This document shows positions 37,757 to 56,616 of a stretch of 64,000 nt of DNA, piece after piece. Below the pieces are notes generated by a model. That model was not told the origin of the DNA. It worked only from the letters and a program-made list of their open reading frames with translations, and did no database searches. Position 1 is the stretch's first letter. Every line of letters starts with the position of its first letter. A program made the translations under genes and the position numbers. This DNA is from a phage. The DNA is taken from assembly GCA_011915565.1 (NCBI GenBank), contig GCA_011915565.1_3920.1, one strand, 5' to 3'.

Positions 37757-38042
37757 CGTTAAACTCTCTGACGAAGAAATAGTTGACTTTGTTATTACCT
37801 ACCATAAGGTCAAAGCAGGTATTTTCAAAAGGTTTGTTGTAGGCATCGTATGAAATATATGGGTCAGCTACTTGCTTAGTGCTTAACTTCTTACTTGATG
37901 GATTTAAGAGGCCACCATACAGCTTCTTGATAGCCTCTTCTACAACAGACCAGATAATTTCGTCAGTAATTTCTTCGTACAGGTCAAGTTCACGCTCCAG
38001 TGAGAAGTCACAAATAGGGAAAACAACCTGTACTTTACTCAT
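37749..38042 (-). CDS. hypothetical protein
   Basis: 97 aa. Confidence 0.5.
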   Translation of the reverse strand: MSKVQVVFPICDFSLERELDLYEEITDEIIWSVVEEAIKKLYGGLLNPSSKKLSTKQVADPYISYDAYNKPFENTCFDLMVGNNKVNYFFVREFNDE

Positions 38043-38449
38043 TAACGAATAACCTGTGAGACTTGAATTGCTTCAGTTACTGACAAGTCACCTACTTTCT
38101 CTTCTTTGATAAAAGTGAAGGTGAGTTCAACAGGTTCTTGCTCTTCTTGCTCTTCTTGCTCAACTGGAACACCATTAAGCTCATCAAAGATTGATTGGGT
38201 TGTCCAGTCTTCTCCACCATCTGGATAGTGGATTACGTAGAGAGGGAACTCTGTGTTAAACCAACCAAATACAGGGCAGCCATCTTCATCATCTCGCACC
38301 CGATGAAGGGTGCTTCCAGACCCTGTAAAACGAAGGAATAAATCTCCGTTGCACTTGAATATTACTGCGTCGGCAAAACCGATGTCTTCTCGACCATCAT
38401 GACCAAATGTGTCAACCTTTACTTGAATATCTCTAACATCTTTATTCAT
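38042..38449 (-). CDS. hypothetical protein
   Basis: 135 aa. Confidence 0.5.
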   Translation of the reverse strand: MNKDVRDIQVKVDTFGHDGREDIGFADAVIFKCNGDLFLRFTGSGSTLHRVRDDEDGCPVFGWFNTEFPLYVIHYPDGGEDWTTQSIFDELNGVPVEQEEQEEQEPVELTFTFIKEEKVGDLSVTEAIQVSQVIR

Positions 38450-38840
38450 AAAAACCTCTCTCTGCTTGTTCGATTTTTGCTCTTAAAGTTTCGCAATGCT
38501 GTAGATGGTAGTTAGCTTCTTGTTCATGTGTTGCTAACTGCCTTTCCAGAACAGATTTATAGTAACCTGCAAGTTGCTCTTTTGTCAATGGGTGCTCTGA
38601 AATAATATCAAGTCCACTTTCACCAAGAGGATTGAATTGTCCATGCTCATTGACATTGTAAGTCTCAAACTTGAACATACCATTGTTCACAGACTTAATA
38701 GGTGACAGTTCAACAAGCTCTACAGTAAACCGTGTATACACCTTGTCGCCTCTTGAAACTACATTGTTTCCAATGATGCGTACAAGCGAACCATTACGAG
38801 TGTATTTAAAAGTCCCAAAATCACTAGCCCAAAGCTTCAT
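38442..38840 (-). CDS. hypothetical protein
   Basis: 132 aa; AAGGAGAAAACT RBS on minus strand. Confidence 0.55.
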   Translation of the reverse strand: MKLWASDFGTFKYTRNGSLVRIIGNNVVSRGDKVYTRFTVELVELSPIKSVNNGMFKFETYNVNEHGQFNPLGESGLDIISEHPLTKEQLAGYYKSVLERQLATHEQEANYHLQHCETLRAKIEQAERGFYE

Positions 38841-38851
38841 AGTTTTCTCCT

Positions 38852-38882
38852 TAGAAAATAAAAAAGGCTCCCGAAGGAGCCT
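38852..38882 (-). terminator. intrinsic terminator (minus strand)
   Basis: Reverse complement AGGCTCC-TTCG-GGAGCC then TTTTTT, downstream of the endolysin gene. Confidence 0.7.
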
Positions 38883-38891
38883 ATGAAGATA

Positions 38892-39356
38892 TTACTTTGG
38901 ATATACACTGTCAAGATAAATGTCAGCTTCCATTCTACGTCTGTTTTTCAGACCGTTTGAAGTGACCTTCTTACCTTTGACTGTAACCTTGTTCCACCAC
39001 TGCATAGCTTCTGCACAACCTACCTTATTACCAGCATTGTGGCGCTTGATAAATGTGGAATCCTGCATAGCTGTGATACCGATGTTGTATGTTTCACTTA
39101 CAAGTGCATCGAACTCATTCTGAGTAGTTGGAACCTTGATAGCTTTGTTCACTGCTGCAACAAACTTCTCAACATCCGCGAGAAGATACTGTTCAGCTTG
39201 TTCAGCGGTGATTTTCATTCCCATCTTAACAGGTTTTCCGTCAATACGGATTGTACCATACCCGATTGTTGGGATTCCGGCAGAGTCTTCGTAAGCCTCT
39301 AACTCCAGACCTTCGAAGAACTTAATAGCTTCTAAACCTTTTCTTGAGAGTTGCAT
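38892..39356 (-). CDS. endolysin, phage lysozyme (GH24, T4-lysozyme-like)
   Basis: 154 aa; GLEAIKFFEGLELEAYEDSAGIPTIGYGT matches the T4/lambda lysozyme catalytic N-terminal region. Confidence 0.8.
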   Translation of the reverse strand: MQLSRKGLEAIKFFEGLELEAYEDSAGIPTIGYGTIRIDGKPVKMGMKITAEQAEQYLLADVEKFVAAVNKAIKVPTTQNEFDALVSETYNIGITAMQDSTFIKRHNAGNKVGCAEAMQWWNKVTVKGKKVTSNGLKNRRRMEADIYLDSVYPK

Positions 39357-40489
39357 TATGCCTCCCCTGCTGGGTTAACAGTAACTGTTGCAGCATTAGA
39401 CGTTACAGAACCACCTGCACCAGTAACTACACAGGTGTAGCTTCCTGCATCAGCAGCGGTTGCACCTTCTTTGGTGTAAGTTGCAGTAGTTGCATCGAGG
39501 ATGTCTTCCTCACCTTTCTTCCATTGGTAACCTGTCGCACCTGTTGCCACAACATTCAGCGTTAAGGTCTCACCTTCAGTGATTTCTTGATTGGTTGGCT
39601 GTTGAGTGATAACTGGTAAAGCTTTCACAGTAACGGTTGCAGGGTTAGAAGTGACAGAACCACCTGCACCTGTTACAACGCAAGTGTATGAACCTGCATC
39701 TGCTGGCAGAGCACCAGACTTACTATAGGTTGCATCTGTAGCCGAAGGAATGTCAGAGCCATCTTTCTTCCACTGATAACCTGTTGCACCTGTTGCAGTC
39801 ACTTCCAAGTTGATGTTTCCACCCTCATTGACGGTCTGGCTAGAAGGTTGTTGTGTAATCACAGGCAGTGCGTTGACAGTAACTGTTGCCGCATCTGAGG
39901 TAACGCTTGTCCCAGCCTCTCCAGATACAACACAAGTGTATGAACCAGCATCAGAAGGTTCTACAGACTGTTTTGTGTAGGTTGCAGATGTGGCGCTAGT
40001 GATATCCTCACCATCCTTTTTCCATTGATATCCAGTGGCATTAGTTGCAATAACACTTAGGGTAAGTGTACCACCTTCATTTACTGTTTGATTGGTTGGT
40101 TGCTGAGTGATTGATGGTGGCTTGATAGCGTCCTTCAACTTAGCATTCAACATTGAGAATGGTTTAACTCTTGCCAGCCATTCACAATAAACTGTATCAA
40201 CGTCTTTACCATTGATAATTGCATATTGTAAGTCCATGAAGAAGTCAGAAGTTCTCATTTGAGCACCAACACTGTAAAGCAACTCATCACTAAATGGAAC
40301 TTTGTAGTCTGGTTTATAGTCAAACTTCTCAACTTCTGCAATATCAGCTTCAGGCCAATACGAGCTATAGGTAAGTGGTAAAATAGCCTCTTGATATGTT
40401 CTAAAATCATATCTCTTACCAGCCTTTACGTTTGCAATGAAGCCCTTCACAAACTCTTTGAAGTCTGGGTAAGTCTTTGCTTTAATCAT
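39356..40489 (-). CDS. protein with three tandem Ig-like (I-set-type) domains
   Basis: 377 aa; three repeats of about 80 aa each containing GYQWKKDG...DAGSYTCVV; N-terminal 110 aa paralogous to the adjacent 123-aa protein. Confidence 0.7.
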   Translation of the reverse strand: MIKAKTYPDFKEFVKGFIANVKAGKRYDFRTYQEAILPLTYSSYWPEADIAEVEKFDYKPDYKVPFSDELLYSVGAQMRTSDFFMDLQYAIINGKDVDTVYCEWLARVKPFSMLNAKLKDAIKPPSITQQPTNQTVNEGGTLTLSVIATNATGYQWKKDGEDITSATSATYTKQSVEPSDAGSYTCVVSGEAGTSVTSDAATVTVNALPVITQQPSSQTVNEGGNINLEVTATGATGYQWKKDGSDIPSATDATYSKSGALPADAGSYTCVVTGAGGSVTSNPATVTVKALPVITQQPTNQEITEGETLTLNVVATGATGYQWKKGEEDILDATTATYTKEGATAADAGSYTCVVTGAGGSVTSNAATVTVNPAGEA

Positions 40490-40857
40490 TTCTTTTCAGC
40501 CTCTAAATGTGCGTTTAGTCTAAAATAACCTTTGTGATTCGGAGATACATCACCAACGACAATACCTTTAACCTTATATCCTTTACCAATTACATACTGG
40601 ATATCCATAAGGAATCTTCCAAGACCAACAATATGGAACATTGGGTATAATAGACTCTCAGAGTCTGGAATATTGATTTCAGGTTTGTAGGTACGCTGTT
40701 CGCTTGTTGGTGTAATATCTTCTTCAGGCCATTTACTGAGTCTCCATGTCAAAGGTGTTGGGATAACATCATTAAGGTTGTACCTTTCACCATTTTGCAC
40801 GGAATTGATATAGGATTGTAGGAAGCAATAAAAGTCTTTTGCACTCTTAGCTTTCAT
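40486..40857 (-). CDS. hypothetical protein, paralog of the Ig-like protein N-terminal domain
   Basis: 123 aa; shared blocks (ERYNL/KRYDF, YKP, FLMDIQYVI/FFMDLQYAI, LNAHL/LNAKL). Confidence 0.6.
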   Translation of the reverse strand: MKAKSAKDFYCFLQSYINSVQNGERYNLNDVIPTPLTWRLSKWPEEDITPTSEQRTYKPEINIPDSESLLYPMFHIVGLGRFLMDIQYVIGKGYKVKGIVVGDVSPNHKGYFRLNAHLEAEKK

Positions 40858-40904
40858 TAAATATCCTTATAAATAGTTAAAGGGGCATAAGCCCCTATTC
40901 ACAC

Positions 40905-42114: not shown

Positions 42115-42486
42115 ATGAAAAACAGAACAAACAAAGGCCAGTTTAAAAAAGGCCAGTCTGGAAACCCATCTGGAAGACCAAAAGGCTCTCGTAACAAAAG
42201 CTCACTTGTAAAAGCTCAACTGACCATTGATAATTCTGCTGAGTTTGCTGCAAAGTTGTTTGAAGCGATTGTTACAAGGGATGCTGCTAAGCTTGCAGAG
42301 TTCGGTTTGACGACTGACGATGTAAACCTGAAGTCGATGATGGAAGCTGGTAAAACTATCATGACTCACTCAGCAGGTGAGATGAAAGCAATTGCAGCAG
42401 ACACTAAGAAGACCCCTGATAATGGTGGTCAGCCTCAGACAGATAACAAACCAACGTTCTCTGCTGTTGCAACCCTCAAAAAATAA
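42115..42486 (+). CDS. hypothetical protein with GNPSGRPKG motif
   Basis: 123 aa; basic N-terminus KKGQSGNPSGRPKGSRNK. Confidence 0.55.
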   Translation: MKNRTNKGQFKKGQSGNPSGRPKGSRNKSSLVKAQLTIDNSAEFAAKLFEAIVTRDAAKLAEFGLTTDDVNLKSMMEAGKTIMTHSAGEMKAIAADTKKTPDNGGQPQTDNKPTFSAVATLKK

Positions 42487-42567: not shown

Positions 42568-43983
42568 ATGAGCGAATTATTTAAACATGCGCACCTTCAT
42601 GCAGGTCGAACTGAAAATGGTGCTGTAAACCATACTTCATCAATGTCTGCTCTTGTAGACTTTTACAAAGCTGCTGGTTCAAGCCGTAGCAATGTAGAAA
42701 TCTTACCAGACCTGTTCTACAAAGCTTTGCGTGAGGATGTTGATGTTGCAGTTCGTATTTTACTGCATATGCGAGATGTACGAGAAGGTATGGGTGAGCG
42801 TAAGGCCTTCAGAACTGTTTTACTTCAAGCGATTGAAGACAAAGTTTTAGAGCCTACGCAGGTTCTTCGCATTATGGATAAGGTTGCAGAACTTGGTCGT
42901 TTTGATGACTTCAAAATCTTCGTAGGTACTCGTTTCGAGACAGATGCCTTCAAGCATTTAGAAGCAGCATTACTAGACCCTGCAACAGCAGGTTTGGCGG
43001 CTAAGTGGTTACCACGAGTCAAACCACGTCATAAGCAGTTTGTAAAACGTTTCTGCAAGTTTGCCAACTTGAGTGAGAAAGAGTACCGCACACTGTTGTC
43101 TGCACTATCTGATACAGTTGAGCAAAAAATCTCTGCTAATGAGTTTGGTAAGATTGATTACAGCAAGATTCCTTCACTTGCTGCTGCACGTTACCAAAAA
43201 CTCTTTAACCGTAAAGATGGGGAACGTTACAAAGCTTACATTGAGTCTTTATCAAAGGGCGAGGCTAAGATTAATGCTGGTGCTGTTTACCCATACGATG
43301 TGATTAAATCTGTTAAGTATGGTAATGCAGATGTTGCTAATGAGCAGTGGAAAGCACTACCAAACTGGATGGCAGAAGGTGAAAACATCCTATGTATGAC
43401 TGATGTTTCAAGCTCAATGTATTGGGTGAATTTTGGTTCAATCACTGCACTTGATATTGGTGTATCACTTGCCTTGTATGTAGCAGAACGCAATACAGGT
43501 TGCTTTAAGGATGAGTTGATGGTTTATTCAACAAACCCTCACTTCATCGAACTGAGTGGTGATTTACGAAACCGTCATCGTCAGGTGATGCGACACGTTG
43601 AATATGGCTCAACCAACTTACAAGCAGCTTTTGACCGCATTCTTGAAACAGGTAAAAGAAACAACTTGACTCAGAAAGATATGCCAAGTAAGCTTATCAT
43701 CTTCTCCGATATGGAGTTTAATCAGGTTGATGGTGCTAATGGTCGTACAAACTTCGAAGCAATTCGAGATAAGTACGAAAAAGCTGGATATGAGATGCCA
43801 CAACTGGTATTCTGGTACTTAGCAAACCGTAATGGTACTTGCGAAGTATCTATTAAGGATAACGGTGTAGCAATGGTATCTGGTTTCTCTCCAGCCACTT
43901 TAAAAGCTTTGCTTGGTGGTGAGAAGTTTGACCCAATCAGCGTAATGCTCAAAGCAGTAATGATTGACCGTTACATCTGGTAA
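42568..43983 (+). CDS. von Willebrand factor A (vWA) domain protein with N-terminal helical domain
   Basis: 471 aa; MIDAS-like DVSSSM at about residue 280; domain order resembles Ro60/TROVE or DUF2828-type proteins (inference). Confidence 0.7.
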   Translation: MSELFKHAHLHAGRTENGAVNHTSSMSALVDFYKAAGSSRSNVEILPDLFYKALREDVDVAVRILLHMRDVREGMGERKAFRTVLLQAIEDKVLEPTQVLRIMDKVAELGRFDDFKIFVGTRFETDAFKHLEAALLDPATAGLAAKWLPRVKPRHKQFVKRFCKFANLSEKEYRTLLSALSDTVEQKISANEFGKIDYSKIPSLAAARYQKLFNRKDGERYKAYIESLSKGEAKINAGAVYPYDVIKSVKYGNADVANEQWKALPNWMAEGENILCMTDVSSSMYWVNFGSITALDIGVSLALYVAERNTGCFKDELMVYSTNPHFIELSGDLRNRHRQVMRHVEYGSTNLQAAFDRILETGKRNNLTQKDMPSKLIIFSDMEFNQVDGANGRTNFEAIRDKYEKAGYEMPQLVFWYLANRNGTCEVSIKDNGVAMVSGFSPATLKALLGGEKFDPISVMLKAVMIDRYIW

Positions 43984-44148: not shown

Positions 44149-44225
44149 CTCTGTTTAGCTCAGCTTGGTAGAGCGTTCCGTTTGGGGCGGTAAGGCCGGA
44201 GGTTCAAGTCCTCCAACAGAGACCA
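44149..44225 (+). tRNA. tRNA-Pro (anticodon TGG)
   Basis: Manual cloverleaf: acceptor CTCTGTT/AACAGAG, GGTTCAAGTCC T-arm, CCA encoded. Confidence 0.7.
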
Positions 44226-44232
44226 AATTAAT

Positions 44233-44310
44233 GTTCCAGTAGACAAAATGGTAAAGTCACCACTCTTTCAAAGTGGATATCTGAGGGTTCAAATCCCTTC
44301 TGGAACGCCA
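44233..44310 (+). tRNA. tRNA-Glu (anticodon TTC)
   Basis: Acceptor GTTCCAG/CTGGAAC; anticodon stem CCACT/AGTGG, loop CTTTCAA; CCA encoded. Confidence 0.7.
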
Positions 44311-44315
44311 GTTTT

Positions 44316-44392
44316 GACAGAAGACCAATTACAGCAAACTTAATCTTATTCATCTGAAGGTAAATCGGACAAAGAAGAGATTTGGTCTGGTC
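44316..44392 (+). other. tRNA-spacer structured element, copy 1 (CAGAAGACC...GGTCTGG)
   Basis: Conserved CAGAAGACCAATTACAGCAA head and TTGGTCTGG tail forming a 7-bp closing stem. Confidence 0.5.
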
Positions 44393-44401
44393 ATTAAGAA
44401 T

Positions 44402-44478
44402 TGCGGGTATAGAGAAAGGGTGTCTCACATGTCTCATTAGCATGGTATCGGCAGGTTCGACTCCTGCACCCGCCTCCA
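44402..44478 (+). tRNA. tRNA-Met (anticodon CAT)
   Basis: D-stem GAGA/TCTC, anticodon loop CTCATTA, T-arm GCAGG-TTCGACT-CCTGC, CCA encoded. Confidence 0.65.
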
Positions 44479-44480
44479 AA

Positions 44481-44550
44481 TTTACAGAAGACCGTTTACA
44501 GCAATACTTATTAAATTTTTAGCGGAAAAATTGAAAGATACGGTCTGGTA
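44481..44550 (+). other. tRNA-spacer structured element, copy 2
   Basis: TTTACAGAAGACCGTTTACAGCAA...ACGGTCTGG. Confidence 0.5.
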
Positions 44551-44561
44551 ATACTAAACAT

Positions 44562-44638
44562 GGTTAGGAAGCACATAAGGTATGTGCGGTCGCCTGTTAA
44601 GCGAATGGCACAGGGTTCGAATCCCTGACTAACCGCCA
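44562..44638 (+). tRNA. tRNA-Asn (anticodon GTT)
   Basis: Acceptor GGTTAGG/ACTAACC; anticodon loop CTGTTAA; T-arm CAGGG-TTCGAAT-CCCTG. Confidence 0.65.
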
Positions 44639-44646
44639 AATTAAAT

Positions 44647-44734
44647 GTGTCGTTATCCCGTAGATGGTAGCGGTGGGGACTGTAAATCCCTTGTCATTGA
44701 GACTCGGTAGGTTCGACTCCTACACGGCACACCA
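44647..44734 (+). tRNA. tRNA-Tyr (anticodon GTA), long variable arm
   Basis: 88 nt; anticodon stem-loop GGGGA-CTGTAAA-TCCCT; type II structure. Confidence 0.65.
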
Positions 44735-44739
44735 ATAAA

Positions 44740-44816
44740 GGCTATGTAGTTTAACTGGAGAAAATACTCCCCTGTCACGGGAGATGATGTGAGTTCAAGT
44801 CTCATCGTAGCCGCCA
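44740..44816 (+). tRNA. tRNA-Asp (anticodon GTC)
   Basis: Acceptor GGCTATG/CGTAGCC; anticodon stem CTCCC/GGGAG, loop CTGTCAC. Confidence 0.7.
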
Positions 44817-44875
44817 ATTTTGAGAGGGCTATTTAGTTCCTCCCTTAAAGAGTTCTTACGAGTATTCTTTAAAGG

Positions 44876-44952
44876 AGCAGAAGACCAAATACAGCAAGAA
44901 TGTATGAAATTTCAAGCCAATTTAATTTTGAAAATTTAAAACTTGGTCTGGC
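44876..44952 (+). other. tRNA-spacer structured element, copy 3
   Basis: GCAGAAGACCAAATACAGCAA...CTTGGTCTGG. Confidence 0.5.
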
Positions 44953-44963
44953 TCAACAAATTT

Positions 44964-45098
44964 ACAGAAGACCGTTTACAGCAAAACTTAAACAATCTAT
45001 TTCTCCGGTAAAGAAAAGGCGAAGGTTCGATTCCTTCACTCGGCAGATGTCGAGTTGGTGTAATGGTAGCACTTAAGATGATAAACAACGGTCTGGTA
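44964..45098 (+). other. tRNA-spacer structured element, copy 4, containing a degenerate tRNA-like segment
   Basis: TTTACAGAAGACCGTTTACAGCAA head; T-arm-like GAAGG-TTCGATT-CCTTC, hairpin ACTCGGCA/TGTCGAGT, D-arm-like TGGTGTAATGGTAGCAC, then ACGGTCTGG. Confidence 0.45.
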
Positions 45099-45239
45099 AT
45101 TATCTTTGTAGATAAGTTATTAAGCTTACCTGTGAGTATGCGACCACAAAGGGTGAAGGGTAAATTCTAGATTTAAACCCAAAAGGCACATCGCTACAGA
45201 CCTTAAGCAAGTCTGGGTAGCTTATCTACAAAGATAATT
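45098..45239 (+). other. perfect 19-bp inverted repeat enclosing 104 nt
   Basis: AATTATCTTTGTAGATAAG at 45098-45116 and its exact reverse complement at 45221-45239; lies between spacer element 4 and tRNA-Lys. Confidence 0.6.
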
Positions 45240-45243
45240 TAAT

Positions 45244-45319
45244 GGAAGTGTAGCAGAATGGTGATGCGGCAGACTTTTAATCTGACAGGCGATGGGTTCG
45301 AATCCCTCCACTTCTACCA
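45244..45319 (+). tRNA. tRNA-Lys (anticodon TTT)
   Basis: Anticodon loop CTTTTAA; T-arm ATGGG-TTCGAAT-CCCTC; paralog of the 46541 tRNA. Confidence 0.6.
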
Positions 45320-45397
45320 AATTCACCCTTAACTGAGAAACACCTGCGCGGCTGGAAACACCCACTCAACAGTTTCTCTAACTAGGGTACTTATTCT

Positions 45398-45474
45398 GGT
45401 TCAGTCGCAGATAAGGTAATGCAAGGGTCTCATAAGCCCTATGAATGTGGGTTCGATTCCCATCTGAACCTCCA
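45398..45474 (+). tRNA. tRNA with CAT anticodon (Met or lysidine-Ile)
   Basis: Acceptor GGTTCAG/CTGAACC; anticodon stem AGGGT/GCCCT, loop CTCATAA. Confidence 0.6.
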
Positions 45475-45475
45475 A

Positions 45476-45551
45476 GCTGGTATAGTTAAGAAGGTTATAA
45501 CACTCCCCTGATAAGGGAACATCGGTGGTTCGATTCCACCTACCAGTACCA
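45476..45551 (+). tRNA. tRNA-Ile (anticodon GAT)
   Basis: Acceptor GCTGGTA/TACCAGT; anticodon loop CTGATAA. Confidence 0.65.
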
Positions 45552-45566
45552 ATTTCAATAAAGTTG

Positions 45567-45595
45567 TTGACATTGAGATGTGACTCCTTTATACT
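45567..45595 (+). promoter_or_regulatory. sigma70-like promoter (TTGACA-17-TATACT)
   Basis: Inside the tRNA array, upstream of a 200-nt hairpin-rich spacer and tRNA-Arg. Confidence 0.55.
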
Positions 45596-45797
45596 AACCT
45601 TAGTTTTCGTTGCGTAGCGTCTATTTTGCAAATTTAAAATAAATGCAAACGACAATGTTTTTCTGGCAGTAGCTTGATAGGCTAAACACCAGTGAGGTCT
45701 TCCAATCCCTCATCAAAGAATTTGGCGTACTCGCCCACGGTATGATTAATAAGGTGGGCATCTTTAAGGGCTTTCTAAGAGAGTCTTTAAAGATAAT

Positions 45798-45874
45798 GCA
45801 CCCTTAGTTCAATTGGATAGAGCAACGGTCTTCTAAATCGTTAGTTACAGGTTCGAATCCTGTAGGGTGTACCA
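45798..45874 (+). tRNA. tRNA-Arg (anticodon TCT)
   Basis: Acceptor GCACCCT/AGGGTGT; D-arm GTTC...GAGC; anticodon loop CTTCTAA. Confidence 0.7.
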
Positions 45875-46016
45875 AATAGTTAGCAGATTACTTAGACGGC
45901 CTTAGCGGGTCTTCCTGTAGGGAGGTGGTCTGTATCTCATGTTTTCCAGAACATGTAAATAATCTGAGAAGAAGCTTGACAGTGTTGAGATAACAGGGTA
46001 AGCTTCGAATTATAAT

Positions 46017-46099
46017 ATGGGACGATGTTAAGACTCTAAGGCATGAGCAACGGCCTCCAAAACCGTTTCAAAGGGGTTCAACTCCTCCGTCCCATGCCA
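46017..46099 (+). tRNA. tRNA-Trp (anticodon CCA)
   Basis: Acceptor ATGGGAC/GTCCCAT; anticodon loop CTCCAAA; 83 nt with enlarged D region; preceded by TATAAT. Confidence 0.55.
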
Positions 46100-46112
46100 A
46101 AGTCTTATTAGG

Positions 46113-46200
46113 GGTAGGTAGCGGCTAATGGCAGCCAAACAGTCTTGAAAACTGTTGCCACTGTAGAGATACGGTGAGGGTTCGACTCCTTTACTTACCG
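46113..46200 (+). tRNA. tRNA-Ser (anticodon TGA), long variable arm
   Basis: Anticodon stem ACAGT/ACTGT, loop CTTGAAA; type II; no CCA encoded. Confidence 0.6.
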
Positions 46201-46376
46201 CCTAATAAGATTTACTCCGTCCATGCTTGTTCGCATTGTCGGTTTATCCCTCGTGTATTGTCGTACACTGTCAAAGCACCTAGTAGGTGTCACGGAGAAG
46301 AGATAATATCAAGCTCTCCAAAGGTTCTAGTCACCGGATTAAACAAGACTATGCAAAGACCTATTTAGGTCTTTTT
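46201..46376 (+). ncRNA. candidate structured non-coding RNA ending in an intrinsic terminator
   Basis: No ORF; long-range complementarity (ACTCCGTCC ... GTCACGGAGAAG); ends with AGACC-TATTT-AGGTCT plus TTTTT at 46355-46376. Confidence 0.4.
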
Positions 46377-46456
46377 AGAGGGCTTCTAAGGTTATTAGTC
46401 GCTTGTTGTGGAACCTTGTTGCTCAGGTTCTTAGAAGTTCTCTAAAAAGATTTAAT

Positions 46457-46533
46457 GCACCTATAGCCCAACTGGTAGAGGCAGCAGACTTAGAATCTGC
46501 TCAGTGTGAGTTCGAATCTCTCTAGGTGTACCA
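46457..46533 (+). tRNA. tRNA with TAG anticodon (Leu by anticodon; short variable arm)
   Basis: Acceptor GCACCTA/TAGGTGT; anticodon stem GCAGA/TCTGC, loop CTTAGAA; 77 nt, type I. Confidence 0.55.
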
Positions 46534-46540
46534 AATTAAT

Positions 46541-46616
46541 GCAGGTGTAGCAAAATGGTTATGCGGCTGACTCTTAATCAGTAAGACGATGGGTTCAATT
46601 CCCTCCACCTGTACCA
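46541..46616 (+). tRNA. tRNA-Lys (anticodon CTT)
   Basis: Paralog of the 45244 tRNA; anticodon loop CTCTTAA. Confidence 0.55.
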
Positions 46617-46622
46617 AACAAT

Positions 46623-46698
46623 GGGGTCATAGTTTATATGGTTAAAATTCGAGTTTTGCAAACTTGGGAACCGAGTTCAATTCTCGGTGACTCCACCA
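46623..46698 (+). tRNA. tRNA-Ala (anticodon TGC)
   Basis: Clean 76-nt cloverleaf: GGGGTCA acceptor, GTTT/AAAT D-stem, loop TTTGCAA, T-arm CCGAG-TTCAATT-CTCGG. Confidence 0.7.
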
Positions 46699-46704
46699 AT
46701 TAGT

Positions 46705-46779
46705 GCATCCATAGTTTAAACGGGAAAATTACAGTCTTCCAAACTGAGGTTGAGGGTTCGATTCCCTCTGGATGCTCCA
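46705..46779 (+). tRNA. tRNA-Gly (anticodon TCC)
   Basis: Acceptor GCATCCA/TGGATGC; anticodon loop CTTCCAA. Confidence 0.65.
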
Positions 46780-46786
46780 AATTAAT

Positions 46787-46862
46787 GCTCCTATCGTATA
46801 ATTGGTTATTACGGTTGCCTTGTAAGCAACTTATCAGGGTTCGAGTCCTTGTGGGAGCACCA
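46787..46862 (+). tRNA. tRNA-Thr (anticodon TGT)
   Basis: Anticodon stem GTTGC/GCAAC perfect, loop CTTGTAA; T-arm CAGGG-TTCGAGT-CCTTG. Confidence 0.7.
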
Positions 46863-46892
46863 ATTCAGAGGTCAAGTGAAAGACCGCTTTGA

Positions 46893-46950
46893 GTCAACTG
46901 AAGACCGTAACAAATTCCACGGAGTTGAGTTAGCGGCACAACTCCAGACC
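46893..46950 (+). other. tRNA-spacer structured element, diverged copy 5
   Basis: CTGAAGACCGTAACAAATTCC related to the CAGAAGACC head; enclosed by AGAGGTC/GACCTCT inverted repeat. Confidence 0.4.
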
Positions 46951-46958
46951 TCTTTCAT

Positions 46959-47033
46959 ACTCGCTTAGTTTATATGGTAAAACATCACCCTTACAAGATG
47001 AAGAAAAAGGTTCAAGTCCTTTAGTGAGTACCA
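46959..47033 (+). tRNA. tRNA-Val (anticodon TAC)
   Basis: D-stem GTTT/AAAC; anticodon loop CTTACAA; T-arm AAAGG-TTCAAGT-CCTTT. Confidence 0.65.
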
Positions 47034-47034
47034 T

Positions 47035-47112
47035 GTTCCAGTATCCCAATTGGCAGAGGATGCAAGCTCAAACCTTGTATTAGTGACGGTTCGAATCCGT
47101 CTTGGAACACCA
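47035..47112 (+). tRNA. tRNA with CAA anticodon (Leu by anticodon; short variable arm)
   Basis: Acceptor GTTCCAG/TTGGAAC; anticodon stem GCAAG/CTTGT, loop CTCAAAC; T-arm GACGG-TTCGAAT-CCGTC. Confidence 0.55.
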
Positions 47113-47117
47113 ATTTT

Positions 47118-47193
47118 GCAGGATTAGTTCAAATGGAAAGAGCAACAGTCTACGAAGCTGTTAATAGGGGTTCGAATCCCTTATCCTGCGCCA
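47118..47193 (+). tRNA. tRNA-Arg (anticodon ACG)
   Basis: Clean 76-nt cloverleaf; anticodon stem ACAGT/GCTGT, loop CTACGAA. Confidence 0.7.
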
Positions 47194-47210
47194 GATAAAA
47201 AGGTGATACT

Positions 47211-47453
47211 ATGCAAACATTAACAGTAGTTGAACATGAAAACTGTGAGAGTATTGAGTTTGTCAGGGTCATTGGTGTTGAACACCACATTTTCTTAAAA
47301 GTTGGATACTTATGTGACCCCGCTAGAGTAGAAAGATTTATACGTGATTGTTTTGGTGGTAGACATCTGAAGAGTGTTATTTTTGAGACAGTTTTACCAG
47401 AAGGTTTAGAAACGAATAATAACATTTACCTCCTTACGAGGATTAGACAATGA
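47211..47453 (+). CDS. hypothetical protein embedded in tRNA array
   Basis: 80 aa; AAGGTGA RBS 6 nt upstream; directly follows tRNA-Arg. Confidence 0.5.
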   Translation: MQTLTVVEHENCESIEFVRVIGVEHHIFLKVGYLCDPARVERFIRDCFGGRHLKSVIFETVLPEGLETNNNIYLLTRIRQ

Positions 47454-48007
47454 GATACTTAAAGTATGCTTCATGGATTTTCTTAGCTTTGTTAGAGCCA
47501 TTTGCAGCAATCTTAGCAGTTATCTTAGCACCTTTTGTAGTTCCATTCTACAGTGAGAAGAAAGGACACTTACCTTTCGGGTTCAGATGGATGGAGACTT
47601 ATGACAACCCAATTGATGGTGATGCAGGTCATATCAAACGATGGGCTAAGATTAGAAAGATTGGTAAGCTTGGTGTCTACATGCAGAGAGTTGGATGGCT
47701 CTGGAGAAACAAAGCTTATAACTTCTCTTACCATGTGTTAGGAAGAGATGTAAAAGACGTTACTAAGTGGAAAGGTAATATCAACGTAAGTTCTAACCCT
47801 GAAGATAATCAGACAGGTTATCTCCTAATGTGGAACAGTAATGCTTGGGGATTATTCGCTTTTATCCCATCAATTAAAATCTTTGGTAAACAATTCTACT
47901 GGAGAATTTATGTTGGATGGAAACTTAAAAGTGTTGTCCCAGAAGAAAGAGCATTCTCAAGGGAAAGAGTTATGTTGGCATTCTTTATTCATCCACTAAG
48001 AAAGTAA
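47450..48007 (+). CDS. membrane protein embedded in tRNA array
   Basis: 185 aa; N-terminal TM segment WIFLALLEPFAAILAVILAPFVVPF; start overlaps upstream stop (ATGA). Confidence 0.6.
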   Translation: MRYLKYASWIFLALLEPFAAILAVILAPFVVPFYSEKKGHLPFGFRWMETYDNPIDGDAGHIKRWAKIRKIGKLGVYMQRVGWLWRNKAYNFSYHVLGRDVKDVTKWKGNINVSSNPEDNQTGYLLMWNSNAWGLFAFIPSIKIFGKQFYWRIYVGWKLKSVVPEERAFSRERVMLAFFIHPLRK

Positions 48008-48015
48008 AGATTTAA

Positions 48016-48091
48016 AGGGGATTAGTTTACAAGGTTAAAACCTCGGTCTTTGAAATCGAAGAAGTTGGTTCAATTCCAACATCCCCCGCCA
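48016..48091 (+). tRNA. tRNA-Gln (anticodon TTG)
   Basis: Anticodon loop CTTTGAA; T-arm GTTGG-TTCAATT-CCAAC; unpaired 1:72 and G73. Confidence 0.65.
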
Positions 48092-48093
48092 AT

Positions 48094-48172
48094 GCTCCAT
48101 TACTCCAATTGGCAGAGAGGCCAGACTTAAAATCTGTGTTATGTATCGGTTCGAATCCGATATGGAGTACCA
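48094..48172 (+). tRNA. tRNA with TAA anticodon (Leu by anticodon; short variable arm)
   Basis: Acceptor GCTCCAT/ATGGAGT; anticodon loop CTTAAAA; D-loop AATTGGCAGA shared with the 47035 tRNA. Confidence 0.5.
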
Positions 48173-48177
48173 AATTT

Positions 48178-48253
48178 AGCGGTATAGCATAACTGGCAAT
48201 GCAGCAGCCTCTGAAGCTGTCCTATTAAGGTTCAAATCCTTATGCCGCTGCCA
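48178..48253 (+). tRNA. tRNA-Gln (anticodon CTG)
   Basis: Acceptor AGCGGTA/TGCCGCT; anticodon stem GCAGC/GCTGT, loop CTCTGAA; G73. Confidence 0.6.
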
Positions 48254-48284
48254 CTTCTAAGGATTCTTACGAGAGTCCTTAAAT

Positions 48285-48360
48285 GTGGCCTTATCATAAA
48301 TGGTAATGACCCATGCTGTGAACATGGTCTATACGGGTTCAAATCCCGTAGGTCACCCCA
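48285..48360 (+). tRNA. tRNA-His (anticodon GTG)
   Basis: Anticodon stem CCATG/CATGG perfect, loop CTGTGAA; discriminator C. Confidence 0.7.
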
Positions 48361-48366
48361 ATTTAT

Positions 48367-48442
48367 AGTCCAAGTAGCTTATATGGTTAAAGCGCGTGTC
48401 TGAAAAACATGAGAAGAGGGTTCAAATCCCACTGGACTACCA
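48367..48442 (+). tRNA. tRNA-Phe (anticodon GAA)
   Basis: Anticodon stem CGTGT/ACATG, loop CTGAAAA; T-loop TTCAAAT; CCA encoded. Confidence 0.6.
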
Positions 48443-48458
48443 ATTTCAAAGGTGCTTA

Positions 48459-49193
48459 ATGAAAGAGATGACAGAACAAGGTAAGGAGATTTTCAATCTC
48501 TTAAAAACCGGTAAAGGGTTTTCTAACCCCCTTATTACTGGTGCAGCAGTTCTCGGTGGAACCGTAGCTGCCTCTACATCACTTGTAAGCTCTATTAGCT
48601 CTGTATCAGACCCTACAGTAAAGGATAAGCTTGTTGCTGCTGGACTTACAACAGTTCTGCTTAACAGCTTTACCACGAGTCTGACAAGCACTACATCAAC
48701 TACCAAAACACTAACAGATTACGGTCAAAAGTCCATTGATGAGTTTTCATCACGTATGCAGGTAGCAAAAGGTTACTCTAATGTTATGGGTGCAGCAGGT
48801 GAACAAGTTGGCTGTACACCATTTAGTGGTATTATGGGTGTTGCTACAGAGTATGGTCAAAAAGCTATTGATACGATTAACAGTGCACTAGATAGTGTTA
48901 ATGGTGTGTTAAGTGACTTACAAGATGCTATTGACAAAGGTCTTGATACTATTTCTGATTTAGCTGAGCAAGCTGTTAGTAAGATTAATGAAGGTATTTC
49001 AAAAATTACAGCTTATGCAGATGAAGTTGTGCAGATGATTGAAGAAGAAGCTGCTCTTATTGCAGAGTACCTTAAAACGAATATCAATGGGTTCTTAGCA
49101 GGTATCTTACCAGACTGGTTTGATGATGCTTGTAAAACTGGTGTAATTGACACTATTGCAACACCAGAAATGAAGAACGCATTACAGAAATAA
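48459..49193 (+). CDS. hypothetical protein (Ser/Thr-rich N-terminus, helical C-terminus)
   Basis: Track ORF starts at 48396 inside tRNA-Phe; first ATG after the tRNA (48459) with AAAGGTG RBS chosen. Confidence 0.55.
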   Translation: MKEMTEQGKEIFNLLKTGKGFSNPLITGAAVLGGTVAASTSLVSSISSVSDPTVKDKLVAAGLTTVLLNSFTTSLTSTTSTTKTLTDYGQKSIDEFSSRMQVAKGYSNVMGAAGEQVGCTPFSGIMGVATEYGQKAIDTINSALDSVNGVLSDLQDAIDKGLDTISDLAEQAVSKINEGISKITAYADEVVQMIEEEAALIAEYLKTNINGFLAGILPDWFDDACKTGVIDTIATPEMKNALQK

Positions 49194-49195
49194 AT

Positions 49196-49288
49196 GGAAG
49201 ATTAACCCTAAAAGGTAAGGGAGCAGTTTGCTAAACTGCCAGTAGCTGAGAAATCGGTGTACCAGTTCAAGTCTGGTATCTTCCTCCA
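49196..49288 (+). tRNA. tRNA-Ser (anticodon GCT), long variable arm
   Basis: Acceptor GGAAGAT/ATCTTCC; anticodon stem GCAGT/ACTGC, loop TTGCTAA; T-arm TACCAG-TTCAAGT-CTGGTA. Confidence 0.65.
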
Positions 49289-49292
49289 ATTT

Positions 49293-49368
49293 GAATCCGT
49301 GACAGAAACGGCTATGTGCCTGTCTGCAAAACAGGTTTATAAGGGTTCGAGTCCCTTCGGATTCTCCA
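49293..49368 (+). tRNA. tRNA-Cys (anticodon GCA)
   Basis: Acceptor GAATCCG/CGGATTC; anticodon stem CCTGT/ACAGG, loop CTGCAAA. Confidence 0.7.
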
Positions 49369-55087: not shown

Positions 55088-55098
55088 GGAACACAATA

Positions 55099-55476
55099 AT
55101 GGCATATCAAGGTTTTACTAAGTTAGGTAACAGAGAACCTCTGAATGATATCATTCTTTGGGAACAGGTTACACCAACAGGCCACTCTCGTAAAGAGTAT
55201 ACCCCACAGGCATCTACAGAGTATCGTGTAGGTGAAGTTCTGAAAGCAGACGGTACTAAGGTACAAGCTGGAGAAGAATCTCAAGCAGACTCTGTATGTA
55301 TCGTTAATTTCTACGCAGACCTGCAACTGTCTTACCACGGTCAGTTGAAAGTTGTTGGTATTTACCGCGACGCAGAGCTAAAAGACATGCTTACTCTTGA
55401 ATCAAGCGTTGACGCTGAAGCAGTCAAGACAGCTCTGGCTGCTAAAGGTATTGATTTCGTACCAACTGGCCTGTAA
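55099..55476 (+). CDS. hypothetical head protein
   Basis: 125 aa between protease and capsid genes. Confidence 0.55.
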   Translation: MAYQGFTKLGNREPLNDIILWEQVTPTGHSRKEYTPQASTEYRVGEVLKADGTKVQAGEESQADSVCIVNFYADLQLSYHGQLKVVGIYRDAELKDMLTLESSVDAEAVKTALAAKGIDFVPTGL

Positions 55477-55509: not shown

Positions 55510-56616
55510 ATGTTGACTAATTCTGAAAAAAGCAGATTTTTCCTTGCTGACCTGACTGGTGAAGTCCAGTCTATCCCAAACACTTATGGGTATATTTCCA
55601 ACTTAGGTCTGTTCCGTTCAGCACCAATCACCCAAACTACTTTCCTTATGGACTTGACTGATTGGGATGTTAGCTTGCTTGATGCGGTAGACCGTGATAG
55701 CCGTAAAGCAGAGACTAGCGCACCTGAGCGTGTTCGTCAAATCAGCTTCCCAATGATGTACTTCAAAGAAGTTGAAAGCATTACTCCTGATGAAATTCAG
55801 GGTGTACGTCAGCCAGGCACTGCAAATGAACTGACTACTGAAGCTGTAGTACGTGCTAAGAAGCTGATGAAGATTCGTACCAAGTTCGATATTACTCGTG
55901 AGTTCCTGTTTATGCAAGCTCTGAAGGGTAAAGTTGTTGATGCTCGTGGTACTCTGTATGCTGACCTGTACAAGCAGTTCGACGTTGAGAAGAAGACTGT
56001 TTACTTCGACCTTGACAACCCTAATGCTGACATCGACGCTTCTATTGAAGAACTGCGTATGCACATGGAAGATGAAGCTAAGACTGGCACTGTAATCAAC
56101 GGTGAAGAAATTCACGTAGTTGTTGACCGCTTATTCTTCAGCAAACTGGTTAAGCATCCTAAGATTCGTGACGCTTATCTTGCACAGCAGACTCCACTGG
56201 CTTGGCAACAGATTACTGGTTCTCTGAGAACTGGTGGTACTGACGGCGTTCAGGCTCACATGAACACTTTCTACTACGGTGGTGTTAAGTTTGTCCAGTA
56301 CAACGGTAAGTTCAAAGACAAGCGTGGTAAGGTTCACACTCTGGTGAGCATTGATAGCGTAGCGGCAACTGTTGGTGTAGGTCATGCTTTCCCTAACGTT
56401 TCTATGCTGGGCGAAGCAAACAACATCTTCGAAGTGGCATATGGTCCATGTCCTAAGATGGGTTATGCCAATACACTTGGTCAGGAACTGTACGTATTCG
56501 AATACGAAAAAGACCGTGACGAAGGTATTGACTTTGAAGCTCACTCTTACATGCTGCCATACTGCACACGTCCTCAGTTGCTGGTAGACGTTCGTTCTGA
56601 CGCTAAACCAGACTAA
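55510..56616 (+). CDS. major capsid protein (probable)
   Basis: 368 aa downstream of protease/scaffold; position and size only. Confidence 0.65.
   Translation: MLTNSEKSRFFLADLTGEVQSIPNTYGYISNLGLFRSAPITQTTFLMDLTDWDVSLLDAVDRDSRKAETSAPERVRQISFPMMYFKEVESITPDEIQGVRQPGTANELTTEAVVRAKKLMKIRTKFDITREFLFMQALKGKVVDARGTLYADLYKQFDVEKKTVYFDLDNPNADIDASIEELRMHMEDEAKTGTVINGEEIHVVVDRLFFSKLVKHPKIRDAYLAQQTPLAWQQITGSLRTGGTDGVQAHMNTFYYGGVKFVQYNGKFKDKRGKVHTLVSIDSVAATVGVGHAFPNVSMLGEANNIFEVAYGPCPKMGYANTLGQELYVFEYEKDRDEGIDFEAHSYMLPYCTRPQLLVDVRSDAKPD

Follow-up and report, generated by a model that had tools for sequence, protein, structure and literature searches.

Why should a phage carry, beside its endolysin and outside its structural module, a pair of related genes of which one encodes a string of immunoglobulin (Ig)-like domains? 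We have followed up this question in a 64,000-nt stretch of phage DNA (GenBank assembly GCA_011915565.1, contig GCA_011915565.1_3920.1; hereafter the window) from a Felixounavirus, with 96-99% identity to phages wV8 and LMP34. In the best explanation, which we consider very probable, the 377-aa product is a hexamer-centre decoration protein of the capsid (Hex-Dec) and the 123-aa product is an old duplicate of its capsid-binding domain (CapBD), which may act as a non-virion accessory. Nearly everything in a preliminary description of the pair was already published in 2025 (PMC11821841, PMC12609058), the 123-aa paralog excepted.

The two ORFs lie on the minus strand at 40486..40857 (123-aa paralog) and 39356..40489 (Hex-Dec, 377 aa, an anchor and three Ig units), as first described. 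They are the first and second genes of a run whose third gene, at 38892..39356 on the same strand, encodes a GH24 endolysin (Pfam Phage_lysozyme, E 4.5e-41). The stop codon of the paralog overlaps the start codon of Hex-Dec by 4 nt (ATGA), so that translation of the paralog is probably coupled to that of Hex-Dec and the endolysin; the Hex-Dec stop and the endolysin start share 1 nt (TAATG). The paralog's AAGGA ribosome-binding site (40864-40868) follows a GC hairpin (AGGGGC-TTAT-GCCCCT; 40881..40896, minus strand) that lies between the paralog and the next gene upstream. The hairpin is annotated in wV8 as a rho-independent terminator and is retained even in genomes from which the paralog has been deleted. 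Just past the endolysin, the three-gene run is closed by a terminator-like hairpin and T-run identified by scanning (38865..38882, minus strand), at the same place as an annotated wV8 terminator. No sigma-70 promoter dedicated to the gene pair was found in the 47-nt spacer, and expression timing was therefore deduced from gene order. Promoter-like matches in the region numbered 5, fewer than the 9.7 expected from shuffled sequence. The order of paralog, Hex-Dec and lysin is kept in a metagenomic phage of 45-63% identity.

The position of the pair outside the structural module and beside the lysozyme is confirmed: the Hex-Dec gene lies ~15 kb from, and on the opposite strand to, the gene for its predicted binding target, the major capsid protein (MCP; 368 aa; 55510..56616, plus strand; tblastn, 98.6% identity to Felix O1 MCP). 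The same position was found in wV8, Felix O1, Sf14, Bas63 and SUSP1. The Bas63 study had already reported both this location and variation between one and four Ig domains (PMC12609058). Since the arrangement was published in 2025 (PMC11821841, PMC12609058), it is no longer puzzling that a structural gene should lie apart from the structural module.

The 377-aa gene is that of the published Hoc-like capsid protein of Felix O1-type phages, and is in this respect ordinary. Over residues 1-372, its product is a homolog of Bas63 Hex-Dec (PDB 9NCF chain S; phmmer E 7.5e-301) and of Sf14 gp20 (9C2D chain S; E 1e-168), and Felix O1 ORF36, which lies beside the lysin, is its ortholog. Two cryo-EM studies from 2025 found that such Hoc-like proteins plug the centres of pentamer-adjacent hexamers in T=9 capsids; the chains were placed at the centres of facet-edge hexamers only, and the 20 true-3-fold hexamers were left free (PMC11821841, PMC12609058). 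Arg79 and Arg107 were reported to bind MCP Asp221 in the Sf14 structure (PMC11821841). Both arginines are present in the 377-aa protein and invariant among Hex-Dec homologs, and Asp221 is present in the window MCP (ORF translation ...HPKIR-D221-AYL). The CapBD (residues 1-121, with Arg79 and Arg107; 40127..40489, minus strand) has a dN/dS of ~0.05. The suggestion of a Hoc-like capsid decoration is further upheld by the capsid location of the homologs (PDB 9NCF, 9C2D) and by virion mass spectrometry (MS), in which Sf14 gp20 was detected and Felix O1 gp36 (ORF36) was found with 14 peptides and 44% coverage. Nothing counted against the identification; the placement in the virion was seen in the homologs and would extend by analogy to the present phage, of which the genes were read here.

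The 121-aa CapBD would accordingly be expected to insert as a monomer at the centre of pentamer-adjacent (quasi-3-fold) hexamers of the T=9 capsid, where Arg79 and Arg107 would pair with a ring of MCP Asp221 residues, while the three I-set Ig domains, which are acidic (pI 4.2), would project outward as a flexible fibre. The Ig domains are without resolved density in either the Bas63 or the Sf14 map (PMC12609058, PMC11821841). By analogy with T4 Hoc, the fibre is presumed either to adhere weakly to glycans or surfaces or to influence how particles aggregate.

The repeats of the 377-aa protein are Ig-like, as had been proposed from a recurrent I-set-like signature. In Pfam searches, Ig_3 (E 2e-34), Ig_2 (E 1.3e-27) and I-set (E 1.4e-26) each matched three stretches of the protein, AlphaFold2 modelled all three units as beta-sandwiches (pLDDT ~95), and Foldseek matched the string to the Ig strings of LRIG1, Robo and titin I67-I69 (E 1e-20 to 4e-22). 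Together with unit typing, the Pfam matches (Ig_3/I-set for the first domain) and the models delimit Ig domain 1 (residues 124-208; 39866..40120) as type R1, Ig domain 2 (residues 209-291; 39617..39865) as type R2 and Ig domain 3 (residues 292-377; 39359..39616) as type R4, all on the minus strand. The R1 unit of the window and that of a four-Ig relative are 96% identical in DNA. R2 is an internal unit that is missing from two-Ig relatives, and R4 is the terminal unit, kept in two-, three- and four-Ig forms; Ig domain 3 aligns best to the fourth Ig domain of Bas63 Hex-Dec.

Among 28 IMG/VR loci, Hex-Dec proteins were 210, 294, 377 or 461 aa long, and typing of their units resolved R1R2R3R4, R1R2R4 and R1R4 arrangements as well as R1/R4 chimeras with three different breakpoints. 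As judged from these unit sequences, the Ig count alters by loss or gain of internal units, and the one-Ig forms are chimeras of the first and last units whose crossover points differ. Copy number (1-4 among relatives) changes by unequal recombination between units, and the prediction that repeat number is a site of length variation by recombination agrees with both the observed range and the unit typing. A search for CapBD homologs by word-index sampling yielded mostly one-Ig proteins, a sample that carries no estimate of their frequency. At the DNA level, a tandem repeat was considered and rejected: Tandem Repeats Finder detected no array of ~250 bp period in the window, and the recurring segments were only 36-41 nt long, with 75-81% identity, and spaced every 249-252 nt. 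The Ig units share 67-71% pairwise identity in protein and only 62-65% in DNA, so that this genome contains no long exact substrate for slippage. Ig variation among phages is nevertheless recombinational, and the one-Ig chimeras show that fibre length is easily reset by this route.

Comparison with known systems places the protein more precisely. Bas63 Hex-Dec (9NCF chain S; bas63_0124) and Sf14 gp20 (9C2D/9C3A chain S) are orthologs with an N-terminal CapBD bearing Arg79/Arg107 followed by I-set repeats, the same gene position between the 123-aa paralog and the endolysin, and the same T=9 MCP with Asp221. They differ from the window only in the number of Ig domains and the units that make them up: three in the window (R1-R2-R4), four in Bas63, the third unit being distinct, and three in Sf14, with ~70% DNA identity to the window. 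T4 Hoc is similar in being a monomer at the hexamer centre, in its projecting Ig-like string, acidic surface and variable Ig number, and in being dispensable in the laboratory. However, its capsid-binding domain is C-terminal, while that of Hex-Dec is N-terminal, and the Bas63 authors described the CapBD as larger than that of Hoc, topologically distinct and pseudo-C2 symmetric (PMC12609058). When the CapBD profile and model were compared with the PDB, no Hoc chain was matched. Given the reversed domain order, the distinct topology and the lack of a Hoc match, Hex-Dec is Hoc-like in its working and stands outside the Hoc family. An anchor-only paralog of Hoc is described in neither structural paper (PMC11821841, PMC12609058). 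T5 pb10 (PDB 5LXK, 8ZVI) resembles Hex-Dec in its Ig part (E ~1e-11) and is also non-essential, but it has a single Ig domain and a capsid-binding domain without detectable similarity to the CapBD.

Deep homology of the CapBD to the anchors of Hoc or pb10 was rejected after sequence, profile and fold searches of the PDB gave the two orthologs only; among 1.84 billion representative proteins, a CapBD profile matched just 13. Distant single-copy CapBD proteins (P0099-P0104) from metagenomic phages have the domain in common with Hex-Dec (profile E 2.5e-10 to 1.2e-4), and at least one of their lineages has the same synteny of a gp43-like gene, the CapBD gene and a lysozyme, with DUF5681 and DUF2828/DUF7788 genes nearby. 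Their cargo differs, consisting of Big_2 domains, a single Ig domain or a tail rich in Lys, and each locus has a single CapBD gene without an anchor-only paralog. A pairing like that of T4 hoc and inh was also rejected; a 'faint' Phage_Inh_N flag upstream of a distant CapBD gene was not reproduced (Pfam, E up to 5), and no Phage_Inh_N match was found in the 196-aa gene of the window at the same threshold.

The smaller gene of the pair corresponds to wV8 gp42, Felix O1 ORF37, Sf14 gp21, bas63_0125, SUSP1 agp126 and phrog_4463. It had been described as paralogous to a 110-aa N-terminal domain of its neighbor; the paralogy is borne out by formal alignment, while the domain is longer, at about 120 aa. 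BLASTP aligned the 123-aa protein to the Hex-Dec N-terminus with 37% identity over 101 aa (E 1e-16), phmmer matched it to 9ncf_S (E 1.4e-11), and phrog_3995 and phrog_4463 cross-match (E 1e-15 to 1e-16; 5.9e-15 was also given). In a multiple alignment of the paralogs with Hex-Dec CapBDs, 25 columns are invariant, those of the WPExDI and LNAxL motifs among them. A sequence search of the PDB returned only the CapBDs of 9ncf_S and 9c2d_S, and the AlphaFold2 model of the paralog, of moderate confidence (pLDDT 69, pTM 0.71), matched solely these resolved domains in Foldseek (TM 0.63-0.65, probability 1.0). From its sequence and predicted fold, we read the 123-aa gene as a stand-alone copy of the capsid-binding domain and a member of the CapBD family. 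An anchor-only paralog is mentioned in neither the Bas63 nor the Sf14 structural paper (PMC12609058, PMC11821841); the gene is so far undescribed as a CapBD copy, the rest of the system being known.

The fold and the family-wide core motifs are kept in the paralog, and the capsid-contact lobe is remodelled. In place of the Arg79/Arg107 contact pair of Hex-Dec, the aligned paralogs have an invariant Gly at the first position and Asn, Gln, His or Arg at the second. Columns that are fixed within each group and differ between paralogs and Hex-Dec number 43, concentrated at 75-80 and 92-113, and residues 92-113 of the paralog are replaced relative to the Hex-Dec CapBD. The pI is 8.6 in the paralog against 5.5 in the Hex-Dec CapBD, and a 12-residue segment, LLYPMFHIVGLG, is invariant across the aligned paralogs. 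The Arg79 position is unconserved also in the distant single-copy CapBD proteins, and altered binding thus does not follow from its loss.

What such a protein does must be considered together with its apparent absence from virions. It is not among the listed virion proteins of Felix O1, nor in the Sf14 virion protein table (as gp21), and it is missing from the VpaE1 virion list on the basis of that paper's comparison with the Felix O1 list; two of the three lists are old or were curated, and a component present in few copies, or averaged out by symmetry, could have escaped notice. The protein would yield 7 predicted tryptic peptides of detectable size, among them DFYCFLQSYINSVQNGER and FLMDIQYVIGK. 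It was built in neither the Bas63 nor the Sf14 capsid model, and a Felix O1 resistance paper (PMC12724215) contained nothing bearing on the gene pair.

We envisage the 123-aa gene as an old CapBD-only duplicate with its own ribosome-binding site. Tentatively, its product may be a soluble or transiently bound capsomer-binding accessory, for example one that modulates where or when Hex-Dec loads, rather than a stable second decoration. With rather more doubt, it could be a selected capsomer-binding factor that acts on or against its Ig-bearing sibling; it might then be a placeholder in procapsid hexamers, a competitor confining Hex-Dec to pentamer-adjacent hexamers, or a partner masking the anchor until capsid expansion.

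It is unlikely that the paralog is itself a second, Ig-less virion decoration at sites free of Hex-Dec, such as the 20 true-3-fold hexamers and the portal-proximal capsomers. Its retained CapBD fold and core motifs, its co-expression with Hex-Dec and the vacancy of the true-3-fold hexamers are consistent with such a role. Its basic pI would suit the acidic, Asp-lined capsomer centre, and a contact lobe that is conserved yet different is what a change in site specificity would be expected to produce. However, the Bas63 paper found no density on the other hexamers, in agreement with the distribution of Sf14 gp20 (PMC12609058), even though both phages encode the paralog. Its absence from the Felix O1 and VpaE1 lists and the Sf14 table also argues against this role, and the Felix O1 proteome did detect smaller proteins (9.7-13.7 kDa).

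That the paralog is a functionless duplicate drifting toward loss is distinctly improbable. One sublineage has lost it by deletion: a close match is lacking from about 19 of the 253 records of related phages, and the REP9/Z31/SP116 lineage, represented by the three that were inspected, has one common 228-bp deletion and has lost the paralog start codon. Its evolution is 2-3 times faster than that of the Hex-Dec CapBD, and knock-down of agp126 in the SUSP1 CRISPRi-ART screen was without fitness effect (scored Not Fit). Against this, an intact paralog stands next to Hex-Dec in about 234 of the 253 records, and both cryo-EM phages (Sf14 and Bas63) have it intact. Felixounavirus, Mooglevirus, Suspvirus and a metagenomic relative of 45% identity all retain the intact frame, which is under purifying selection (dN/dS 0.12-0.13), and the invariance of the 12-residue segment and a good ribosome-binding site likewise speak for maintenance. 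The endolysin was also scored Not Fit in SUSP1, and the authors of that screen acknowledge false negatives. Hex-Dec was equally 'Not Fit' under laboratory conditions, so that the dispensability of the paralog there is uninformative.

Two readings of the larger protein fare far worse. It is labelled a tail protein or 'major tail protein' in GenBank, RefSeq and PHROGs (phrog_3995), a designation given to gp36 in the Felix O1 paper, and other phages do have Ig-like domains on their tail tube proteins, as PHROG matches to the Ig parts of major tail proteins indicate. This highly improbable reading is already effectively refuted: the N-terminal domain of two homologs has been built into capsid hexamer centres by cryo-EM (PDB 9NCF, 9C2D), sheath and tube proteins were identified separately in virions with Hex-Dec homologs, and the tail label of gp36 was based solely on gel-band abundance in 2010. 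A CapBD-CapBD-Ig fusion of the two genes by programmed -1 frameshifting, suggested by the -1 frame of Hex-Dec relative to the paralog and by the A-rich junction (GAAAAGAAATGA), was rejected as next to impossible, since no canonical X XXY YYZ slippery heptamer was found, relative frame and overlap vary between lineages (the overlap is 4 nt in the window, 8 nt in SUSP1 and 1 nt in the metagenomic phage), and the mass of the Felix O1 virion protein, 31.6 kDa, fits unfused gp36.

The preferred reading, a Hex-Dec capsid decoration with an old CapBD duplicate beside it, bears on how this phage family is annotated and used. In PHROG 3995 and in hundreds of Felix O1-like genomes, a capsid decoration gene is still labelled 'tail protein', and PHROG 4463, whose function is listed as unknown, is a free-standing copy of the Hex-Dec anchor domain. 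Felixounaviruses are widely used in biocontrol and typing of Salmonella and E. coli, and a protein that sits at hexamer centres, can be dispensed with, is anchored by its N-terminus and varies naturally in its C-terminal cargo (in relatives, 1-4 Ig domains, Big_2 domains or other tails) is an obvious display scaffold. The question left, a modest one, is why almost all Ounavirinae retain a second, cargo-less anchor gene whose product is apparently absent from the virion. If the paralog does prove to be a selected factor acting on its sibling, it would represent an undescribed regulation of capsid decoration by means of a truncated paralog.

Three tightly packed ORFs lie on the minus strand of the window, encoding proteins of 123 aa (40486-40857), 377 aa (39356-40489) and 154 aa (38892-39356), the last of which is a lysozyme/endolysin (Pfam Phage_lysozyme, E 4.5e-41). 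The 123-aa and 377-aa ORFs overlap in ATGA, and the 377-aa ORF overlaps the lysozyme ORF by one base in TAATG. The sequence 5' of the 123-aa ORF contains a short GC hairpin followed by an AAGGA ribosome-binding site, a window scan located a terminator-like hairpin 3' of the lysozyme ORF, and both hairpins flanking the run are annotated as terminators in wV8. The region shares 98.9% identity with Escherichia phage LMP34 and 96.4% with wV8, and all 247 phage records that match it belong to the Felix O1 group. One collection record that has this Felix O1-type locus, 99% identical in protein, goes under the name of a Staphylococcus phage (SA1 in the VpaE1 supplement) and seems to be mislabelled or contaminated. 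The three-gene order is kept in Felixounavirus, Mooglevirus and Suspvirus, and also in an 87-kb metagenomic phage whose 123-aa, 377-aa and lysin homologs are 45%, 59% and 63% identical to those of the window.

Transcribed divergently from this cluster is a DUF5681 gene (42115-42486, plus strand) whose SUSP1 ortholog, agp130, was 'Fit' in CRISPRi-ART (2.43, p 0.008), a rare outcome among the genes of unknown function there. It is followed by a 471-aa DUF2828/DUF7788 protein (42568-43983, plus strand), annotated in relatives as 'RNA-binding protein', directly downstream of which lies a block of 26 tRNA genes (44149-49368, plus strand); reported tRNA counts are 23 for wV8 and 22 for Felix O1. The pairing of the two DUF genes is retained even in the distant locus L010.

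The 377-aa protein is the known capsid decoration protein Hex-Dec. Sequence searches of the PDB returned near-identity to 9NCF chain S ('Immunoglobulin-like domain protein', 460 aa; E 7.5e-301) and to 9C2D/9C3A chain S ('tail protein', 372 aa; E 1e-168), which derive from the capsid reconstructions of Bas63 (PMC12609058) and Shigella phage Sf14 (PMC11821841), respectively. In both papers a 'Hoc-like' decoration protein, named Hex-Dec in Bas63 and gp20 in Sf14, binds as a monomer at the centre of the hexamers next to the pentamers, and its flexible Ig domains lack resolved density. In Sf14, Arg79 and Arg107 of gp20 contact Asp221 of three major capsid protein (MCP) subunits (PMC11821841). Both arginines are present in the window protein and invariant among homologs, and Asp221 is present in the window MCP (55510-56616), which is 98.6% identical to that of Felix O1. 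Judged by sequence, every testable defining feature of the Ounavirinae Hex-Dec/gp20 family is found in the 377-aa protein, which places it in that family. Virion proteomics, the check proposed in the preliminary description, already exists for its orthologs: 14 peptides of Felix O1 ORF36, which adjoins lysin ORF35, were detected in virions and cover 44% of the protein (Felix O1 proteome paper, 2010), and Sf14 gp20 was detected by MS. The preliminary description was also right to place the gene outside the structural module and beside the lysozyme, as it lies ~15 kb from the MCP gene on the opposite strand; the Bas63 decoration gene is explicitly stated to lie >10 kb outside that module (PMC12609058).

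A tail location for the protein is effectively excluded, given that cryo-EM puts its homologs on the capsid. The 2010 proteome paper labelled ORF36 'major tail protein', and from this source the label passed to RefSeq, GenBank, UniRef and PHROGs. Because of the cryo-EM placement and this mislabelling in the virion proteome, 'tail protein' in RefSeq and PHROG 3995 is a propagated misannotation. Some pipelines call the 123-aa protein 'tail protein' too. By analogy, the Ig fibre may have a Hoc-like role in adhesion or in controlling aggregation, as the published authors proposed. Although the 377-aa protein works like T4 Hoc, it stands outside the Hoc family; its domain order is reversed relative to Hoc, and no relationship of its anchor to Hoc is detectable in sequence or fold. 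With T5 pb10 it has domain order and Ig similarity in common, but not the anchor. Upstream of the MCP gene lie ORFs of 448 aa and 125 aa (53741-55476, plus strand). The latter, from its position immediately upstream of that gene, probably encodes the beta-tulip decoration protein (Bas63 gp7/Sf14 gp33), and the window phage would therefore carry both Bas63/Sf14 decoration systems.

The three tandem I-set-like repeats noticed at the outset hold up as Ig domains. Pfam reports three stretches each of Ig_3, Ig_2 and I-set (E 2e-34 to 1.4e-26), and the units (residues 124-208, 209-291 and 292-377) were each modeled by AlphaFold2 with pLDDT ~95; failure to model as Ig, named beforehand as refuting, did not occur. 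Foldseek matched them to the Ig strings of LRIG1, Robo and titin I67-I69 (E 1e-20 to 4e-22). A strong match, much closer than that to any eukaryotic Ig protein, was found to 'grappling hook protein A' of the predatory bacterium Aureispira (PDB 9FLP chain A, 5898 aa; E 1.4e-65, 9 stretches), which may point to a pool of this I-set subtype among bacteria or phages. The units are 67-71% identical pairwise in protein and only 62-65% in DNA. Tandem Repeats Finder detected no array over the Ig repeats, and DNA repetition there is limited to short segments, 75-81% identical and spaced 249-252 nt. GC content is 0.43 at 38001-40000, coinciding with the repeats, versus 0.36-0.37 in flanking minus-strand genes; this could reflect a composition rich in Gly, Ala and Thr, or an Ig module of foreign origin.

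Ig number varies through recombination between units, as had been anticipated. Felixounavirus species have 1-4 predicted Ig domains (PMC12609058), a range reproduced across 28 IMG/VR loci and reference genomes by Hex-Dec lengths of 210, 294, 377 or 461 aa; in GenBank phages, matching DNA spans step by ~250 bp. When each unit was compared against a four-Ig relative, four-Ig forms read R1-R2-R3-R4, the window R1-R2-R4 and two-Ig Felixounavirus forms R1-R4. One-Ig forms are R1/R4 chimeras with crossover points that differ between phages, a pattern that marks independent events of unequal recombination between units. Bas63 is not alone in having four units, which occur in at least seven other GenBank phages; its extra unit differs from the R3 seen in four-Ig phages of the pinkbiff type. 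The Hex-Dec gene of Z31 is split into ORFs of 134 aa and 55 aa.

The suspected paralogy of the N-terminal domain (~120 aa) and the 123-aa protein was borne out by BLASTP (37% identity over 101 aa, E 1e-16), reciprocal PHROG cross-hits and 25 invariant columns in an alignment of 23 sequences. The AlphaFold2 model of the paralog (pLDDT 69, pTM 0.71) matches in the PDB only the resolved capsid-binding domains (CapBDs) of 9ncf_S and 9c2d_S (TM 0.63-0.65), and PDB sequence and profile searches returned nothing beyond these two chains. A frameshift fusion of the two genes is effectively excluded. The CapBD family is very small: 1.84 billion representative proteins yielded 13 hits when searched with a profile. 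Its distant members, single-copy in their loci, fuse the anchor to Big_2 domains, a single Ig domain or a Lys-rich tail, and one distant lineage has window-like synteny (gp43-like gene, CapBD gene, lysozyme). Because these proteins match the Hex-Dec CapBD more strongly than the paralog in BLASTP, or match it solely, we infer from sequence that the paralog is the derived copy. Sf14 (FDI99_gp021) and Bas63 (bas63_0125) both encode it intact, and neither capsid paper mentions it (PMC12609058, PMC11821841).

The 123-aa protein is a stand-alone, selected and dispensable copy of the Hex-Dec anchor domain. Pairwise Nei-Gojobori dN/dS was 0.12-0.13 for the paralog and 0.05 for the Hex-Dec CapBD (Ig1, 0.12-0.14; lysin, 0.07-0.10), which shows the paralog to be a coding gene under selection whose evolution is 2-3 times faster than that of its sibling. 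In the alignment from 30 genomes the two proteins share 35 conserved, identical columns, including the fold core, WPExDI and LNAxL, and 43 are conserved within each protein and differ between them. These differences cluster at residues 75-80 (including Arg79 to Gly) and 92-113, around Arg107, and the paralog is basic (pI 8.6) versus an acidic CapBD (pI 5.5). Within Felixounavirus (loci L012-L038) there are two groups of paralog alleles, 96-99% versus 84-88% identical to the window, with the adjacent CapBD and lysin of the same genomes at 96-100%; this suggests mosaic exchange confined to the paralog.

All virion evidence on the paralog is negative. It is not among the Felix O1 virion proteins, although proteins of 9.7-13.7 kDa were detected there and seven tryptic peptides of detectable size are predicted for it; it is absent for VpaE1 virions by that paper's comparison with Felix O1, and it is not in the Sf14 virion table. 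Because this evidence is combined with clear selection, we favor a soluble or transient capsomer-binding accessory over a stable decoration. Such an accessory might, tentatively, modulate Hex-Dec loading. That the paralog instead decorates the free 3-fold hexamers, as a second such protein, is improbable: the remaining hexamers of Bas63 lack density, and the gp20 distribution in Sf14 is described as the same (PMC12609058). Slightly less probable still is a drifting duplicate. In a Felixounavirus sublineage of REP9 (locus L002, 3806-3997), Z31 (L003) and SP116 (L039) it is a pseudogene that has lost its ATG and has frameshifts and one shared 228-bp internal deletion, ~19 of 253 records have no close match to it, and in SUSP1 CRISPRi-ART both agp126 (paralog, -0.91) and agp125 (Hex-Dec, -0.39) were 'Not Fit', in a screen where the endolysin was likewise Not Fit and false negatives are acknowledged; the selection on the paralog speaks against drift.

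The observation of an Ig-bearing decoration gene beside the lysin was correct, and its novelty is low because the system was structurally characterized in 2025. What remains of interest is the anchor paralog, for which no discussion was found in the searchable literature: a CapBD without cargo that is conserved, selected and apparently outside the virion.
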